A stretch of DNA of 64,000 bases from Escherichia phage phiAPCEc03: the sequence record NC_047754.1. The stretch is one strand, 5' to 3'. Under the pieces are notes generated by a model. That model was not told where the DNA came from. It made no database searches and was given only the letters and a program-made list of their open reading frames with translations. The translations under genes and the position numbers were made by a program. Numbering within the stretch: the stretch's first letter is position 1; each line of letters begins with the position of its first letter. This document shows, one piece after another, positions 55,840 to 60,846 of this stretch.

Positions 55840-56262
55840 ATGAGTACTGAAAATAGAGTTATAGACTTAGTAATAGATGAGAAAGTACCTTATGGTCTAA
55901 TGATGCAATTCTTAGATGTTGATGATAGTACTTATCCCCCTACAAACACCCCTGTTAACTTAACAGGGTATTCTCTAAAGGGTACTATAAAGAATAGCCT
56001 TGATGAGAATGCGGAAACTTTGGCATCTTTTACTACTAAAATTATTGATGCTGCTCAAGGTGCTATAGCTATAAGTTTACCTGTAGAGGCGGTAGATAAT
56101 ATTGGTGAAAAAGCCACCAAAGAGAGAGATAAGTATAACCCTCGCCAACGTTTTGCAGGATACTATGATATAATTATGACACGAGATGTCATAGGATCAG
56201 CTATTAGCTCTTTTCGTATAATGGAGGGTAAAGTATTTATCAGTGATGGGGTAACTAGATAA
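55840..56262 (+). CDS. collar protein (p132-like)
   Basis: 140 aa, immediately upstream of the tail fiber genes. Confidence 0.55.
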
Positions 56263-58709
56263 TGGCAATAACTACTAAGATTATTGTACAACAAATATTA
56301 AATATTGATGATACTAAAGCTACTGCTAGTAAATTTCCTAGATACACAGTAACTCTTGGAAACTCTATTAGCTCTATTACTGCTATAGAGTTAGTATCCT
56401 CTATAGAGGCCGCTGCTAAATCTGCTGCGGCTGCAAAAGATTCTGAAATAGCTGCTAAAACCTCAGAACTTAATGCTAAGAACTCTGAACAGGAAGCTGC
56501 TATTTCTGCTGGAGCTTCAGAAGCTTCTGCTAATCAGTCTGCTACCTCTGCTACTCAGTCCGCAGCGTCAGCCAATAAGTCTGCAGAATCCGCTGCCGCA
56601 GCTAAAATATCCGAGACTAATGCGAAGACTAGTGAAACTAATGCGAAGACTAGTGAAACTAACGCGAAGACTAGTGAAACTAATGCTGACGCATCAGCTG
56701 CTGCTGCAAAAATTAGTGAGACTAATGCAAAGGCAAGTGAGACTAATGCAGCTCAATCAGCTGCTGATGCAAAACTTAGCGAGGGTAACGCAAAGGTCAG
56801 TGAGACTAATGCAGCTCAATCAGCAGCTGATTCTAGCGGTTTTAGGAATGAGGCGGAAATATTTTCTGGGCAAGCTGCTGCATCGGCATCTGCGGCAAAA
56901 ATCTCTGAAACCAATGCAAAAACCTCGGAAACAAAAGCTAAGGCTAGTGAAACTAATGCTGCGGGATCTGCAACTTCTGCTAGCCAATCTGTAGCTACTA
57001 TTCAAGGACTTAAATCAGATGTCGAACAGTTAAAATCTGATACCCAGGACATTAAAAATAGTGCTATAACAGAGACAACAGCTTTAAAAGCGGATGTCGA
57101 ACAGTTAAAATCTGATACCCAGGCCATTAAAAATAGCGCTATAACAGAGACAACAGCTTTAAAAGCGGATGTTGAGCAACTAAAAACAGATACACAAGGT
57201 ATTAAGGATAGCGCGGTATCTGAGACAACAACTTTAAAAGATCAAGCTGCTGCTTCTGCTGCACAAGCAGGTAATAGTGCTGTTGAGGCCGGGCAACAAG
57301 CTAGCAATGCTGCTGGTAGTGCAAATAGCTCTAAAGTAGAAGCAGACCGTGCAAAGGCAGAAGCAGACCGTGCGGAAGTTGCAGCTAATAGGGATCCTGA
57401 TCTTCAACCATTCCCTGACGTATGGATTCCATTTAATGACTCGCTTGATATGCTCGCAGGTTATTCACCCGGCTATAAGAAAATAACAGTTGGTGAAGAT
57501 GTTATTACAATGCCTTCTGATAAGGTTGTTAGTTTCACGCGTGCGTCAAATGCAACATACATAAATAAGCATGGTGAATTTTGTATTGCTAATATCGATG
57601 AACCCAGATTTGAAAAGCAAGGACTCTTGATTGAAGGCCAGAGGACAAATCACATTACTTTCAGTAATGACCCCGCTTCACTAAATACAGATAAGCACCG
57701 TAGTGATGTTACTTATAATGTTGATAAGTATGGTTTTGCATATGCAACGGCTACAGCTAACGAAAATTCACATGGTGAGTACCCTTCATTATTTTATTGT
57801 AAAACCGTGAATGCAATCAACTGTCAGCAAAATGAATATGTTTCTTTATCTATACGAGTAAAGGCAAACTCGGATATCTATATCACCCCACAATTTTATT
57901 TAGTAGGTAAGGATGGAGGTCTTATTCTCGGTGCTAGATCTTTCATAAGTTGCGAAACCGGCGAAGTTTCTTCTGTAGTAGAAGGGAGGGGGACTATAGC
58001 ACATAGAATATATAGAGAAGACAACGGATGGTTGAAAGTTGAAGCTATGTGTAAATTTGTAGAACGTGGAGGTAGTTCTATTGGATCTGTAAATTATTGT
58101 CGGAATAATGATCAACCTTCGCAAGTTGGGGATACAATATCATTTTGTACTCCGCAATTTGAAAAGGGTTTTTGTGCATCCTCCTTCATTATTACGGGAA
58201 GCACTCCTGCAACAAGGGCTCTGGATTATGTTACTATACCTGCAAGAAATAATTTCTCAGGGACGAATATTTCATTCCTTGCTGAGGTAAGTATCAACTG
58301 GAATAGCTTTCAATTAGATAATATATACCCAATGATAGTGGATAACAACCACTACTTCGTAAGAGGAAAAGCATTTGTTGCGGAATTTGACAGAACCTCC
58401 GTTACACCTTACACGTATGTGGTAACTGAGGATGGATCAACTATTCTGTCCAGAGGTTATTCATTTGAAAAACAATTTTCTCCACATGTATTTGGTTTTA
58501 TTCTCAGTGGCGATGTAGAGGTCACCTCGTTTGTTAATGGTAATAGTGGTGAGACCTCACACGGTTCTACCTGGAAAGGAACGGACTCGGACGCACTAGT
58601 AGAAATAGGCGGTAGACTTTCAGATTCAACTAAATTGTATGGTCATATTCGTAACCTTAGAATATGGAATAGAGTATTAACAGATAGTCAAATGCGGGAG
58701 AAAGTTTAA
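56262..58709 (+). CDS. L-shaped tail fiber proximal subunit (LtfA-like) with tandem coding repeats
   Basis: 815 aa; Ala-rich SETNAKT-type repeats and three 27-aa repeats (DVEQLKSDTQ.IKNSAITETTALKA). Confidence 0.6.
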   Translation: MAITTKIIVQQILNIDDTKATASKFPRYTVTLGNSISSITAIELVSSIEAAAKSAAAAKDSEIAAKTSELNAKNSEQEAAISAGASEASANQSATSATQSAASANKSAESAAAAKISETNAKTSETNAKTSETNAKTSETNADASAAAAKISETNAKASETNAAQSAADAKLSEGNAKVSETNAAQSAADSSGFRNEAEIFSGQAAASASAAKISETNAKTSETKAKASETNAAGSATSASQSVATIQGLKSDVEQLKSDTQDIKNSAITETTALKADVEQLKSDTQAIKNSAITETTALKADVEQLKTDTQGIKDSAVSETTTLKDQAAASAAQAGNSAVEAGQQASNAAGSANSSKVEADRAKAEADRAEVAANRDPDLQPFPDVWIPFNDSLDMLAGYSPGYKKITVGEDVITMPSDKVVSFTRASNATYINKHGEFCIANIDEPRFEKQGLLIEGQRTNHITFSNDPASLNTDKHRSDVTYNVDKYGFAYATATANENSHGEYPSLFYCKTVNAINCQQNEYVSLSIRVKANSDIYITPQFYLVGKDGGLILGARSFISCETGEVSSVVEGRGTIAHRIYREDNGWLKVEAMCKFVERGGSSIGSVNYCRNNDQPSQVGDTISFCTPQFEKGFCASSFIITGSTPATRALDYVTIPARNNFSGTNISFLAEVSINWNSFQLDNIYPMIVDNNHYFVRGKAFVAEFDRTSVTPYTYVVTEDGSTILSRGYSFEKQFSPHVFGFILSGDVEVTSFVNGNSGETSHGSTWKGTDSDALVEIGGRLSDSTKLYGHIRNLRIWNRVLTDSQMREKV

Positions 58710-58973
58710 GTGAAAGATATTAATTTACAATTCAAGGATGAAAAACATTATCTGGATGTTGTCGTTGATAGTGGGTGGCTTAAGACAAACTACGGTAACG
58801 TGTTTATAGATGAAATTGGTTTTATCCCTGTGGTAGACGACCCTAAAAGTAAAACCCCTGCTATTATTGGTAAAGAAGGTTATTACATAAATATAAGGGT
58901 AGGAGATAATATAGACTTGTCAGACATCGAACAATTCATTATTAAGAATCCCGATGTACGCAAATGGGCATAA
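58710..58973 (+). CDS. hypothetical small protein between tail fiber genes (GTG start)
   Basis: 87-aa ORF starting right after the LtfA stop. Confidence 0.35.
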   Translation: MKDINLQFKDEKHYLDVVVDSGWLKTNYGNVFIDEIGFIPVVDDPKSKTPAIIGKEGYYINIRVGDNIDLSDIEQFIIKNPDVRKWA

Positions 58974-58983
58974 GAGGTGATCA

Positions 58984-60726
58984 ATGACTACTTATACTAA
59001 TATCCCCCAGGATATTACAAAACTTAAAGACGAAAAGATGGATAAAAACAACAATTTATCCGATCTTGCAGACCGTGCAGCAGCATGGTTAAATGTGCGT
59101 CCTATTGGGTCCACCCCTCTTGCGGGGGATCCTGTTGGGGACTATGATGCCGCAACTAAACGTTGGGTAGAGAATAAGATTAACACCGGTACAGTCGGTC
59201 CCACTATGAATGGTGTTATGAATTACGGTGTTGGTGATTTCCACCTTCGAGATAGTCGTGCGTATATCCAGCCGTACGAGGTGGTTTCTGATGGTCAGCT
59301 TCTTAACAGGGCTGACTGGCCGGAGCTTTGGGCATACGCTCAAAGGGTTGGTGTTATAGAGGATTCGGTATGGTTAGCTTATAAATTCCAGCGTGGAAAA
59401 TACTCTAATGGTGACGGAGCAACAACTTTTCGTGTTCCAGATAAGAATGGGGTGCAGGAGGGATCAATACGTGCTCTTTATGGCCGTGGAGATGGCGGGA
59501 ATAGTGGTGCAAATGGGCAACTGTTCGAATCCGCTGCGCCTAATATTACAGGCTTTTTCACCACATATTCCGCTCAAACTTACGGCCAGGTATTAGGTAT
59601 GACAGGTGGTTCTTTTACCACAAGTAATAAAATATTTCCGGAAGGAAAAGGAGACGGTATACCCCCAGGCACAGCGCCGCTCGCTGGGCGTTATAATACC
59701 TGCGACTTCAATGCCTCAATGTCAAGTCCGATTTACGGGGCATCAACTGATGAGATTCTTACACGAAACTTTGTCGGCGTGTGGGTAATACGGGCGTCCG
59801 GTGGTTTCGTTGCGGCAAATACATCATGGAGTGTAATAAACGCTGATGCTGCCAAACCTCCTACTGGTACAGTTGTAAGGGGTGGTAGTGTGAAGTCAGA
59901 ATACAAGATTGGCACAACTACTACGCATCAAGCATATCTGCAATCTTACGGAAAGATTGATGGATTGACGTCTGAACAAGGTGCAGTTATATCAAACGGG
60001 GTTCAAGAGTGGTCATTTAATCAAGCTGGGACTTTGTACTTCCCAAGCGCAGAAACTCAAATTGGCACGCTAAGGTCTGATGGCGCGCTACAGGTTAACG
60101 CATACGTACGAGCAAAAGACTTCGTTGCACAGCCATTAAACTCTGTTGGAGTTGCCGCTATAGAAAGAAACGCCATCAGAATGATTAACTACGCGAATGT
60201 GTCAGAAGGGTATTATGTAAACACTATAAGCGGCGATTGGTACGATGGAAGCTGGATATTTGGTGGTATTCGCTCCGGTAATAGGTTGTTAGATAGGGTA
60301 CAGCTTAATGTCTATAACGGAATCGGAGGAGCTGCATCTTATATTTTTGGGACGGATGGTATAGCAAAAGGTCAAGAATGGAGAAACTTATCCGACAAAC
60401 GCATTAAAAGTAATATTGAGCGTATAAACGATCCACTATCTAAGATGCGAAACATTAAAGGGGTTAAATGGGTACTAGAAACAAACGGCTCAGTTGGGTA
60501 TGGATTTATTGCTCAGGATGTAGAGAAAGACTTTCCTGAAGCAGTATCTGAAACTCAGTCATCACCTGTTACTCTGCGCGACGGTTCGACGTTGGATAAC
60601 ATAAAATCTGTTAATATGCCAGGTGTAGCAGCTGCACTGCACCACGAGGCGATACTTGCTTTGATGGAAAAGGTGGAGAACCTAGAAGCAGAATTAGCTG
60701 CATTAAAAGAAGCGAATGGTTCCTAA
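58984..60726 (+). CDS. tail fiber distal subunit (LtfB-like) with C-terminal intramolecular chaperone domain
   Basis: 580 aa; C-terminal segment SDKRIKSNIERI...GYGFIAQDVEKDFPEAV resembles the autoproteolytic chaperone domain of phage fibers. Confidence 0.6.
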   Translation: MTTYTNIPQDITKLKDEKMDKNNNLSDLADRAAAWLNVRPIGSTPLAGDPVGDYDAATKRWVENKINTGTVGPTMNGVMNYGVGDFHLRDSRAYIQPYEVVSDGQLLNRADWPELWAYAQRVGVIEDSVWLAYKFQRGKYSNGDGATTFRVPDKNGVQEGSIRALYGRGDGGNSGANGQLFESAAPNITGFFTTYSAQTYGQVLGMTGGSFTTSNKIFPEGKGDGIPPGTAPLAGRYNTCDFNASMSSPIYGASTDEILTRNFVGVWVIRASGGFVAANTSWSVINADAAKPPTGTVVRGGSVKSEYKIGTTTTHQAYLQSYGKIDGLTSEQGAVISNGVQEWSFNQAGTLYFPSAETQIGTLRSDGALQVNAYVRAKDFVAQPLNSVGVAAIERNAIRMINYANVSEGYYVNTISGDWYDGSWIFGGIRSGNRLLDRVQLNVYNGIGGAASYIFGTDGIAKGQEWRNLSDKRIKSNIERINDPLSKMRNIKGVKWVLETNGSVGYGFIAQDVEKDFPEAVSETQSSPVTLRDGSTLDNIKSVNMPGVAAALHHEAILALMEKVENLEAELAALKEANGS

Positions 60727-60810: not shown

Positions 60811-60846
60811 AAGAAACCCCAGTGGACAAAATCCGCTGGGGTTTTT
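60811..60846. terminator. bidirectional rho-independent terminator
   Basis: Hairpin CCCCAG...CTGGGG flanked by A-run upstream and T-run downstream, between convergent gene blocks. Confidence 0.7.

Follow-up and report, generated by a model that had tools for sequence, protein, structure and literature searches.

A lateral tail fibre locus of Escherichia phage phiAPCEc03 that likely encodes a lectin-tipped stalk, a small accessory protein and a docked distal fibre

The window, a 64,000-nucleotide stretch of Escherichia phage phiAPCEc03 (NC_047754.1), carries three ORFs on one strand that encode 815, 87 and 580 aa. In T5, a single ltf gene of 1396 aa occupies this position. The initial annotation had read the three ORFs as replacing the one large fibre gene of T5, and the coordinates bear this out. 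The locus contains the following features.

55840-56262, plus strand: neighbouring gene for the LtfC/p132 collar protein (140 aa; Pfam LtfC, E 3.7e-15; labelled a collar protein in the FFH1 and AKFV33 records)
56262-58709, plus strand: proximal lateral tail fibre protein (815 aa, 86.5 kDa; ATG start)
58710-58973, plus strand: 87-aa accessory protein (GTG start; phrog_1361, no known function)
58984-60726, plus strand: distal "T-shaped" receptor-binding fibre (580 aa; ATG start, own Shine-Dalgarno AGAGGTG)
60812-60846, plus strand: Rho-independent terminator with a 15-bp stem (terminator scan)

In DT57C, LtfC forms a ring that grips the fibre N termini (cryo-EM; PMC10713586). The terminator closes the late fibre operon and faces convergent early genes; the minus-strand genes downstream of the trio are a T5.132-like gene, a dUTPase and a flap endonuclease. 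The annotations of AKFV33 and T5 include comparable bidirectional terminators. Trios of the 815/87/580-aa type are present in at least 12 other phage genomes and are annotated or recoverable in FFH1, AKFV33, NBEco002, SelmaRatti, SP15, IrisVonRoten, EC100, L6jm, KookSpook, BRET and others.

The 815-aa protein has a collar-binding N terminus, an Ala/Ser/Thr-rich coiled-coil shaft and a C-terminal lectin-like module.

56614-57240, plus strand: shaft tandem repeats (Tandem Repeats Finder)
57402-58709, plus strand: C-terminal module of about 435 aa (aa 381-815), its first ~90 aa highly conserved
57627-58220, plus strand: GTA head-spike-fibre-type domain (aa 456-653; match above curated cut-offs)
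58224-58691, plus strand: LamG/ConA-like domain (aa 655-810; match above curated cut-offs)

Residues 1 to 212 match the solved LtfA chain of DT57C (8hqz_d, E 8e-34), and residues 1 to 227 align with T5 pb1 1-205 at 52%. The fibre is made of two large, separately encoded proteins rather than one pb1-type protein, as the initial annotation had proposed, and the first of them is anchored like LtfA and pb1. The protein also matches the tail protein family phrog_1419 (E 8e-227), and mass spectrometry has placed its homologues AKFV33 ORF137 (Niu et al. 2012, PMC3326045) and SIA3lw ORF42 in virions. Tandem Repeats Finder resolved the shaft repeats into SETNAK-type heptads in 21/63-nt units (56614-56831) and three 75-nt units (57018-57240). 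Stalk homologues range from 537 to 816 aa, and these length differences are due to the shaft tandem repeats.

The lectin module has a ConA-like jellyroll fold. Polysaccharide binding has been shown for the RcGTA head spike fibre and suggested for IrisVonRoten Gp22 (Humolli et al. 2025, PMC11990801). We regard the module as a putative glycan-binding element and the probable docking end of the stalk. Its first ~90 residues, the natural candidate for a joint, are poorly modelled (pLDDT below 40) and are equally conserved in phages that have no third fibre. The locus is mosaic here, with a LamG patch (58340-58590) that is 58% identical to FFH1 and 96% identical to SelmaRatti.

For the 580-aa protein, the features listed below follow an inferred layout.

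58984-59052, plus strand: N-terminal peptide, aa 1-23
59053-59208, plus strand: near-invariant neck, aa 24-75
59236-59796, plus strand: T4-gp12-like receptor-binding domain RBD1, about aa 85-271, followed by a shaft
after the shaft, plus strand: T5-like receptor-binding domain RBD2, about aa 370-469
60391-60723, plus strand: S74 chaperone, aa 470-580 (Pfam Peptidase_S74 at aa 470-521, E 8.9e-12)

The Pfam match supports the earlier proposal of a C-terminal intramolecular-chaperone-like domain. Moreover, S470-D-K-R-I-K475 corresponds to S1264-D-A-R-L-K in T5 pb1 and to S933 in LtfA, and profile matches include the chaperone domains of S16 Gp37, MYRF and GA-1 (6f45, 7dc3 and 3gud). EP335 gp13 is autoproteolysed at Ser621/Asp622 (PMC8217332), and by analogy self-cleavage of the 580-aa protein is predicted at Ser470/Asp471. 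Searched for directly, RBD1 gave just a weak Pfam Collar match that stays below threshold (E 0.064), and in the PDB profile search only the chaperone part was matched. The putative gp12-like assignment comes through homology to proteins analysed in the literature. One of these is EP335 gp13, which shares 65% identity with the 580-aa protein over aa 49-548 and whose F236-A422 segment has been matched to T4 gp12 (PMC8217332). The bounds of RBD1 come from a VogelGryff homologue that lacks aa 75-277. Identity to IrisVonRoten Gp24 is 46% across the protein and reaches 66% within aa 1-332. The distal half is FFH1-like and unlike that of AKFV33, to which the last 250 aa are 33% identical. The homologue SIA3lw ORF44 is present in virions.

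The 87-aa ORF is under purifying selection (dN/dS 0.12-0.28 against diverged homologues). The initial annotation had given no account of this conserved gene. Its product is acidic and compact, with a confident AF2 model (pLDDT 89), and searches returned no informative sequence or fold relative. The TAA of the stalk gene immediately abuts the GTG of the 87-aa gene, an arrangement that indicates translational coupling of the two. The small gene is invariably found behind the lectin module, also in lambdoid prophages that lack a third fibre. Therefore, the 87-aa protein is probably an assembly chaperone or a tip accessory of that module.

The gene layout, the homologies, the domain content and the occurrence in virions of homologues of both large proteins are observed, and on them we built a model that we consider likely, a lateral tail fibre of three products. 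Trimers of the 815-aa protein would insert their N termini into the LtfC collar, as DT57C LtfA and T5 pb1 do, and would extend outward as a repeat-rich coiled-coil stalk ending in two ConA-type jellyrolls. This lectin-like end may itself bind surface polysaccharide. The 87-aa protein, made by translational coupling, would act on or sit at the C-terminal module as an assembly chaperone or small tip subunit, a role that we infer. The 580-aa protein would trimerise with the aid of its S74 chaperone, which is expected to cut itself off after Ser470 to leave a mature chain of about 50.6 kDa. Its short N terminus, with the conserved motif xTxTxIPxDIxxLK, would then dock onto the distal end of the stalk. 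Cassette co-transfer, the conserved N-terminal peptide and the published AlphaFold-Multimer model of IrisVonRoten, in which a T-shaped fibre is attached to the proximal fibre (Humolli et al. 2025, PMC11990801), point to this docking site.

The docked fibre would expose a T4-gp12-like and a T5-pb1-like receptor-binding domain, both of them variable. Their ligand is most likely O-antigen, probably O157. The latter specificity is extrapolated from the 65% identity to EP335 gp13, which binds O157 and O26 experimentally (Witte 2021, PMC8217332), and from the hosts of relatives. The initial annotation had suggested a different or dual specificity; more than one glycan-binding element is indeed plausible. 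If the fibre branches here, the branch would stem from the lectin module that terminates the stalk.

The 87-aa protein could instead be a structural connector, and not a non-structural chaperone, that caps the lectin module and receives the N-terminal peptide of the 580-aa protein in a socket. We hold this variant to be possible but doubtful. The gene lies between those of both partners, the product has the acidic, compact and confidently predicted fold described above, and BASEL records call the small protein a 'tail fiber protein'. The N-terminal peptide covaries with the module and with the small-protein class (rho 0.75-0.77), the latter as strongly as the former (rho 0.77), but the signal reflects mostly two sequence classes and is not crisp at a finer scale: IrisVonRoten and KookSpook share 78% in the small protein versus 62% in the peptide. 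The small protein is also kept where the distal fibre is absent, and it is not known to have been detected by proteomics. Proteins as small as 10 kDa fell outside the range of the virion proteomics done on relatives. We tentatively suggest that the 87-aa protein and the lectin module might form a portable "socket" and the ~23-aa distal peptide the "plug" of a previously undescribed joint, an idea that we rate as less probable than not. If true, T5-like phages, Queuovirinae and lambdoid siphoviruses could add or swap a dual-domain fibre onto a complete lectin-tipped fibre, with up to three glycan-binding elements per fibre.

It is unlikely that the locus encodes two independent fibres, one a complete side fibre with a lectin tip, formed like that of phage 21 by the 815-aa and 87-aa proteins, and the other the 580-aa protein, attached at a different site of the tail tip. 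Lambdoid prophages have the stalk and small protein but no third fibre, so that the two are self-sufficient there, and contact between the 580-aa protein and the stalk has never been directly observed. However, the 580-aa N terminus has just ~23 non-fibre residues and no collar- or baseplate-binding homology. The same N terminus is found in T5-like phages, Nonagvirus, Seuratvirus and lambdoid phages despite their unrelated tail tips, and distal fibres that carry it always adjoin the stalk and small genes. The IrisVonRoten model also places the distal fibre on the proximal one.

The initial annotation likened the locus to the branched DT57C type. On such a reading, the 815-aa protein would be LtfA with a chaperone-matured tip, and the 580-aa protein would be LtfB, docking sideways through a gp15-like N terminus onto a gp14-like region. 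Part of this likeness stands. Two large fibre genes directly follow ltfC, the first with a T5-pb1/LtfA-like collar-binding N terminus, the second protein has an S74 domain, and AKFV33, a close relative, is one of the phages for which Golomidova 2016 records two ltf genes. The docks and the S74 tip on the first protein do not. Only aa 1-191 of the 815-aa protein match LtfA (aa 1-212 in the match to 8hqz_d). The phiEco32-gp14-like stretch of LtfA (aa 223-471), on which LtfB is proposed to dock, has no similarity to the 815-aa protein (hhalign probability 0.1%; BLASTP E 0.52). The 815-aa protein ends in the GTA-spike-fibre and LamG domains and has no S74 domain (Pfam) and no SDxRxK motif. The 580-aa family gave no alignment to LtfB aa 1-184, including the gp15-like dock (BLASTP; hhalign probability 0.1%); the dock was searched for as it occurs in LtfB, and tblastn matches of the 580-aa protein in Kuraviruses begin at aa 49. 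Furthermore, the 580-aa protein aligns with the distal half of LtfA (49% to aa 508-1037 over nearly its whole length; aa 16-371 against 8hqz_d aa 528-887, E 6e-116) at least as well as with LtfB (56% to 185-512). DT57C and DT571/2 have no 87-aa gene. The DT57C LtfA/LtfB type is therefore contradicted at the sequence level by the absence of both docks and the S74 tip, and we consider it highly improbable. The 815-aa and 580-aa proteins together would roughly resemble LtfA cut in two with a non-covalent joint, with no counterpart of an LtfB-like second fibre.

We are nearly certain that the trio is not a single pb1-like gene split by sequencing errors or a nonsense mutation, even though the 815-aa and 87-aa ORFs share a frame with a lone TAA between them, the shaft repeats are prone to errors and the stalk gene is split in the records of SP15 and KookSpook. 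Many genomes sequenced independently of one another have the trio, with stalk/small-gene junctions that vary (in-frame TAA-GTG, +1 or +2 spacing, ATGA overlap) in a way not expected of one broken gene. A start and a ribosome-binding context of its own precede each ORF, the 87-aa protein is a separately folded domain under purifying selection, the 815-aa C terminus aligns end to end with those of complete fibre proteins, and the 580-aa ORF sits in a different frame.

Lateral tail fibres set which O-antigen types a T5-like phage penetrates, and fibre architecture is therefore relevant to predicting host range and to engineering phages for the biocontrol of E. coli O157:H7. The three-product model separates conserved scaffolding (collar anchor, neck and N-terminal peptide) from exchangeable specificity elements (LamG patch, RBD1 and RBD2). 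It also corrects a tempting equation with DT57C, in that there would be one T-shaped fibre on a lectin-tipped stalk and not two chaperone-matured fibres.

The architecture is already published for AKFV33 (Niu et al. 2012, PMC3326045) and IrisVonRoten (Humolli et al. 2025, PMC11990801), in which a stalk with the lectin ("galectin-like") module, a ~90-aa gene and a distal fibre are all homologous to ours and in the same order. AKFV33 ORF137/136/135 ("ltpA/ltpB") and FFH1 ORF133/132/131 are direct orthologues of the trio; FFH1 DNA is 96% identical over the locus, and its proteins are 88%, 97% and 98% identical. Both phages are O157:H7-specific Tequintaviruses. In the Tequintavirus IrisVonRoten (Bas32), Gp22/Gp23/Gp24 likewise follow ltfC, and the ~575-aa fibre has the N-terminal IPxDIxxLK peptide and an S74 chaperone. 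Starting at the NLSDLAD motif, 50 residues of its neck (about aa 24-73) are 100% identical to those in the window. However, identity is low in the lectin module (38%), the small protein (36%) and the distal 250 aa (about 25%), and the two therefore differ in ligand specificity; the link is to O16 for IrisVonRoten and to O157 for relatives of the window.

More distant systems share parts of this arrangement. DT57C and DT571/2 (Golomidova 2016; Ayala 2023) also have a collar-anchored first protein with a homologous N terminus and a separately encoded, intramolecular-chaperone-matured second fibre that rides on it, with a homologous distal T-shaped region, but they have two T-shaped modules where this locus has one. 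T5 pb1 (Ltf) is L-shaped, with a homologous N-terminal ~200 aa and a fibre-forming tip whose S74 chaperone also carries the SDxRxK motif; unlike our trio, it is a single polypeptide with no lectin module or small gene, and it binds polymannose O-antigen. In the Kuraviruses phiEco32 (gp14/gp15) and EP335 (gp12/gp13; Witte 2021, PMC8217332), the region of gp13 shared with the 580-aa protein holds the gp12-like segment and the chaperone. EP335 gp13 has ~150 extra N-terminal residues, by alignment offset, for docking to gp12/gp14, whereas residues 1-48 of our protein, outside the match, are the 23-aa peptide and neck conserved in trio-type fibres. Finally, lambdoid phage 21 and related E. coli prophages (Stf plus a 92-aa protein) have the same lectin module (~36% identity) and a homologous small protein, but their stalk starts with a lambda-Stf-like N terminus (PF08400), and the small gene is followed by a gene for a 97-aa membrane protein instead of a third fibre gene.

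The window carries three consecutive ORFs in the slot that T5 fills with a single 1396-aa ltf gene, at exactly the coordinates given in the initial annotation. They encode an 815-aa stalk (proximal lateral tail fiber), an 87-aa small protein, and a 580-aa distal fiber. The features of the locus are as follows.

56262-58709, + strand: 815-aa ORF
56614-56831: 21/63-nt SETNAK-type heptad repeats in the shaft of the 815-aa protein
57018-57240: three 75-nt units in the same shaft, encoding DVEQLKSDTQxIKNSAITETTALKA
58710-58973, + strand: 87-aa ORF, GTG start
58984-60726, + strand: 580-aa ORF
60812-60846: hairpin terminator, 15-bp stem followed by a T-run

Upstream lie a 140-aa LtfC collar gene (Pfam LtfC) and the pb3 and pb4 homologues. 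Downstream, on the opposite strand, are a T5.132-like gene and genes for a dUTPase, a flap endonuclease, and a RusA-like resolvase. The neighborhood is syntenic in FFH1, AKFV33, and T5. The hairpin separates the convergent late fiber operon from the early genes (T5.132-like, dUTPase), and T5 and AKFV33 have annotated bidirectional terminators as its equivalents. A promoter scan did no better than on shuffled sequence (20 found versus 15.8 ± 4.5 expected). A 173-aa ORF in an alternative frame over the shaft repeats (56473-56994, + strand) was rejected as a Leu/Arg/Gln-rich by-product of the repeats, with no gene evidence.

By megablast, FFH1 carries the locus at 96% identity, and NBEco002, ESCO40, and AKFV33 match it at 81 to 95% coverage. 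All four are Tequintaviruses, and several were isolated on E. coli O157:H7. At 58707-58712, the TAA stop of the 815-aa ORF abuts the in-frame GTG start of the 87-aa ORF, a junction common to FFH1, AKFV33, and NBEco002. In SelmaRatti, BRET, SP15, and IrisVonRoten, the first two ORFs lie in other frames or have an ATGA overlap. Because the junction frames differ among relatives, the 815-aa and 87-aa ORFs are separate, translationally coupled genes. We considered programmed read-through of the TAA because the gel mass of AKFV33 ORF137, the stalk homologue, is near that of a fusion of the two ORFs: it was observed at 95.8 kDa against 83.1 kDa predicted, and the fusion would be 93.2 kDa (calculated). 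Acidic coiled-coil proteins commonly migrate slowly on gels. Read-through is unsupported, since SelmaRatti, BRET, SP15, and IrisVonRoten lack the in-frame arrangement, and the supplements of the AKFV33 paper held nothing bearing on it. Finally, one gene split by sequencing frameshifts, the possibility raised against the initial annotation, or by a nonsense artifact is excluded, because the trio is annotated or recoverable in at least 12 independently sequenced phages, the junctions vary, and the 87-aa gene has a low dN/dS (0.12 to 0.28 versus diverged homologues) and a confidently predicted compact α/β fold (AlphaFold2 pLDDT, 89); the ORFs are genuine.

Homology searches with both large ORFs, as first suggested, revealed an LtfA/pb1-like N terminus in the 815-aa protein and a body like distal LtfA and LtfB 185-512 in the 580-aa protein. 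The collar anchor of the stalk (aa 1 to 212) matches the solved DT57C LtfA chain 8hqz_d (E = 8e-34), and aa 1 to 227 align with T5 pb1 1-205 at 52%. In the DT57C cryo-EM structure, the LtfA N terminus is threaded into the ring of the collar protein LtfC and is followed by a trimeric coiled coil (PMC10713586). The shaft (aa ~40 to 380) is rich in Ala, Ser, Thr, Glu, and Lys and contains the tandem repeats; stalk homologues vary in length between 537 and 816 aa. In the SP15 and KookSpook records, the stalk gene is entered as two overlapping CDS, suggesting frameshifts tied to the repeats or errors in sequencing. Residues 381 to 815 form a distinct C-terminal lectin module, with a GTA_spike_fiber domain at aa 456 to 653 (NCBIfam; 50.4 bits versus a cut-off of 36) and Laminin_G_3 at aa 655 to 810 (Pfam). 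Capsular polysaccharide is bound by the RcGTA head spike fiber, after which the NCBIfam domain is named (PMC10218006). The module is common (2447 database proteins at E ≤ 1e-5) and is joined to lambda-Stf-type, P2-type, rV5-type, and T5-type N termini in Drexlerviridae, Dhillonvirus, Queuovirinae, lambdoid phages, and Vequintavirinae. Given these varied partners, it behaves as an exchangeable distal module would. AKFV33 ORF137 has been detected in virions, as have homologues of both the 815-aa and the 580-aa proteins in purified virions of SIA3lw.

The 580-aa protein carries the C-terminal chaperone-like domain that had been recognized at the outset: Peptidase_S74 lies at aa 470 to 521 (Pfam; E = 8.9e-12), and its Ser470-Asp-Lys-Arg-Ile-Lys motif corresponds to the cleavage motifs of T5 pb1 (S1264) and LtfA (S933). 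The protein aligns over nearly its full length with distal LtfA (DT571/2 aa 508 to 1037, 49%); DT57C LtfA 528-887 matches it with an E value of 6e-116. LtfB aa 185 to 512 align with it at 56%, and no counterpart of LtfB aa 1 to 184 was found in it. IrisVonRoten Gp24 is 46% identical overall and 66% identical over aa 1 to 332, and EP335 gp13 is 65% identical over aa 49 to 548. Gp24 has been modeled as a "T-shaped" fiber with a T4-gp12-like RBD1, a T5-like RBD2, and a chaperone, attached to the proximal fiber Gp22; the galectin-like domain at the C terminus of Gp22 is a possible additional RBD (Humolli et al. 2025, PMC11990801). Witte et al. 2021 (PMC8217332) demonstrated binding of EP335 gp13 to O157 and O26 cells and its autocleavage behind the conserved serine, and found its F236-A422 segment to be similar to the tip of T4 gp12. 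Mapped through the shared serine, RBD1 would lie at about aa 85 to 271 of the 580-aa protein. This placement agrees with the third protein of VogelGryff, which lacks exactly aa 75 to 277. A PDB profile search with the 580-aa protein recovered chaperone domains only, and not the T4 gp12 or T5 pb1 tip structures.

The VogelGryff protein (L007 5559-6725, 388 aa) is annotated as a "putative lateral tail fiber chaperone" and is a distal fiber without the RBD1 insert. In Dru_SM1 (L074 4890-6100) and VSe12 (L017 4898-5731), the third gene seems to lack part of its 5' end or to be divided there.

The 87-aa protein falls in phrog_1361, a family without known function, and all its database relatives are labeled hypothetical. 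In a full HMM scan, 1.84 billion representative proteins yielded only 83 relatives, nearly all 85 to 125 aa long. The few long TPR or PKD proteins among the hits were heterogeneous, matched through numerous short segments, and were judged spurious. Fold searches gave no informative relative. Its homologues lie directly 3' of the lectin module at every locus examined, and in phage 21, 4A7, Perceval, and JeffSchatz no further fiber gene follows. Downstream sequence was sufficient at 14 lambdoid prophage loci (from L020-L065); none of them has a third fiber gene, and 13 have a 97-aa membrane protein in its position. The sequence classes of the small protein and the lectin module vary together (rho = 0.75; 66 pairs, 12 trios). 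We conclude that the 87-aa protein acts for the lectin module, either helping it assemble as a chaperone or sitting at the tip as a small subunit. It may instead be the connector to the distal fiber.

A conserved predicted membrane protein of ~97 aa (MDISPLLHALCAVAAQ...) also follows the small protein at L008 5590-5883, L013 4792-5085, and L075 4792-5085. In several of these lambdoid phages, sitABCD iron/manganese transporter cargo comes next, with no third fiber.

All third-gene products begin with a peptide with invariant T3, T5, I7-P8, D10-I11, L14-K15, and K21, followed by a near-invariant neck. The Nonagvirus BRET has the same cassette (identities of 74% for the C-terminal part of the stalk, 78% for the small gene, and 54% for the distal fiber) on an unrelated stalk N terminus and tail. 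Therefore, judging from these comparisons, the docking partner of the distal fiber would have to be part of the cassette rather than of the T5 tail. The first 23 residues of the distal fiber correlate in class with the module and the small protein (rho = 0.75 to 0.77), mainly through two classes, and the correlation blurs at a finer scale; the 50 residues after them hardly vary, and the distal 250 show no correlation. This pattern lends weak support to docking within the cassette.

The locus is FFH1-like throughout except at 58340-58590 (aa ~693 to 776), within the LamG domain. There, DNA identity is 58% to FFH1, 96% to SelmaRatti, and 88% to AKFV33 and NBEco002, and the flanks are 92 to 99% FFH1-like. 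This stretch is a recombination patch, which fits the LamG domain as a specificity element. Of the seven relatives compared, only FFH1 matches in DNA over 59840-60726, which encodes the shaft, RBD2, and chaperone in the distal half of the 580-aa fiber. The N-terminal ~300 aa are widely shared, a pattern of modular exchange at the neck/RBD boundary.

The observation of a divided fiber was thus confirmed, and its reading as the branched DT57C LtfA/LtfB type was supported in part. The functional likeness stands: a second fiber rides on a collar-anchored first protein. In the strict sense, the fiber is not DT57C-type; three defining features are absent. The 815-aa protein lacks an S74 domain and shows nothing similar to LtfA aa 223 to 471, the proposed LtfB-holding region, and the 580-aa protein lacks a counterpart of LtfB aa 1 to 184. 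A two-gene fiber was described for AKFV33 in 2012, Golomidova et al. placed this phage among the T5-like phages with two ltf genes, and Maffei et al. noted that a T5-like fiber can consist of a single protein, of two, or of more; the proximal plus T-shaped architecture was modeled for IrisVonRoten in 2025. The fiber in the window adds a new mosaic member to this already described AKFV33/IrisVonRoten kind.
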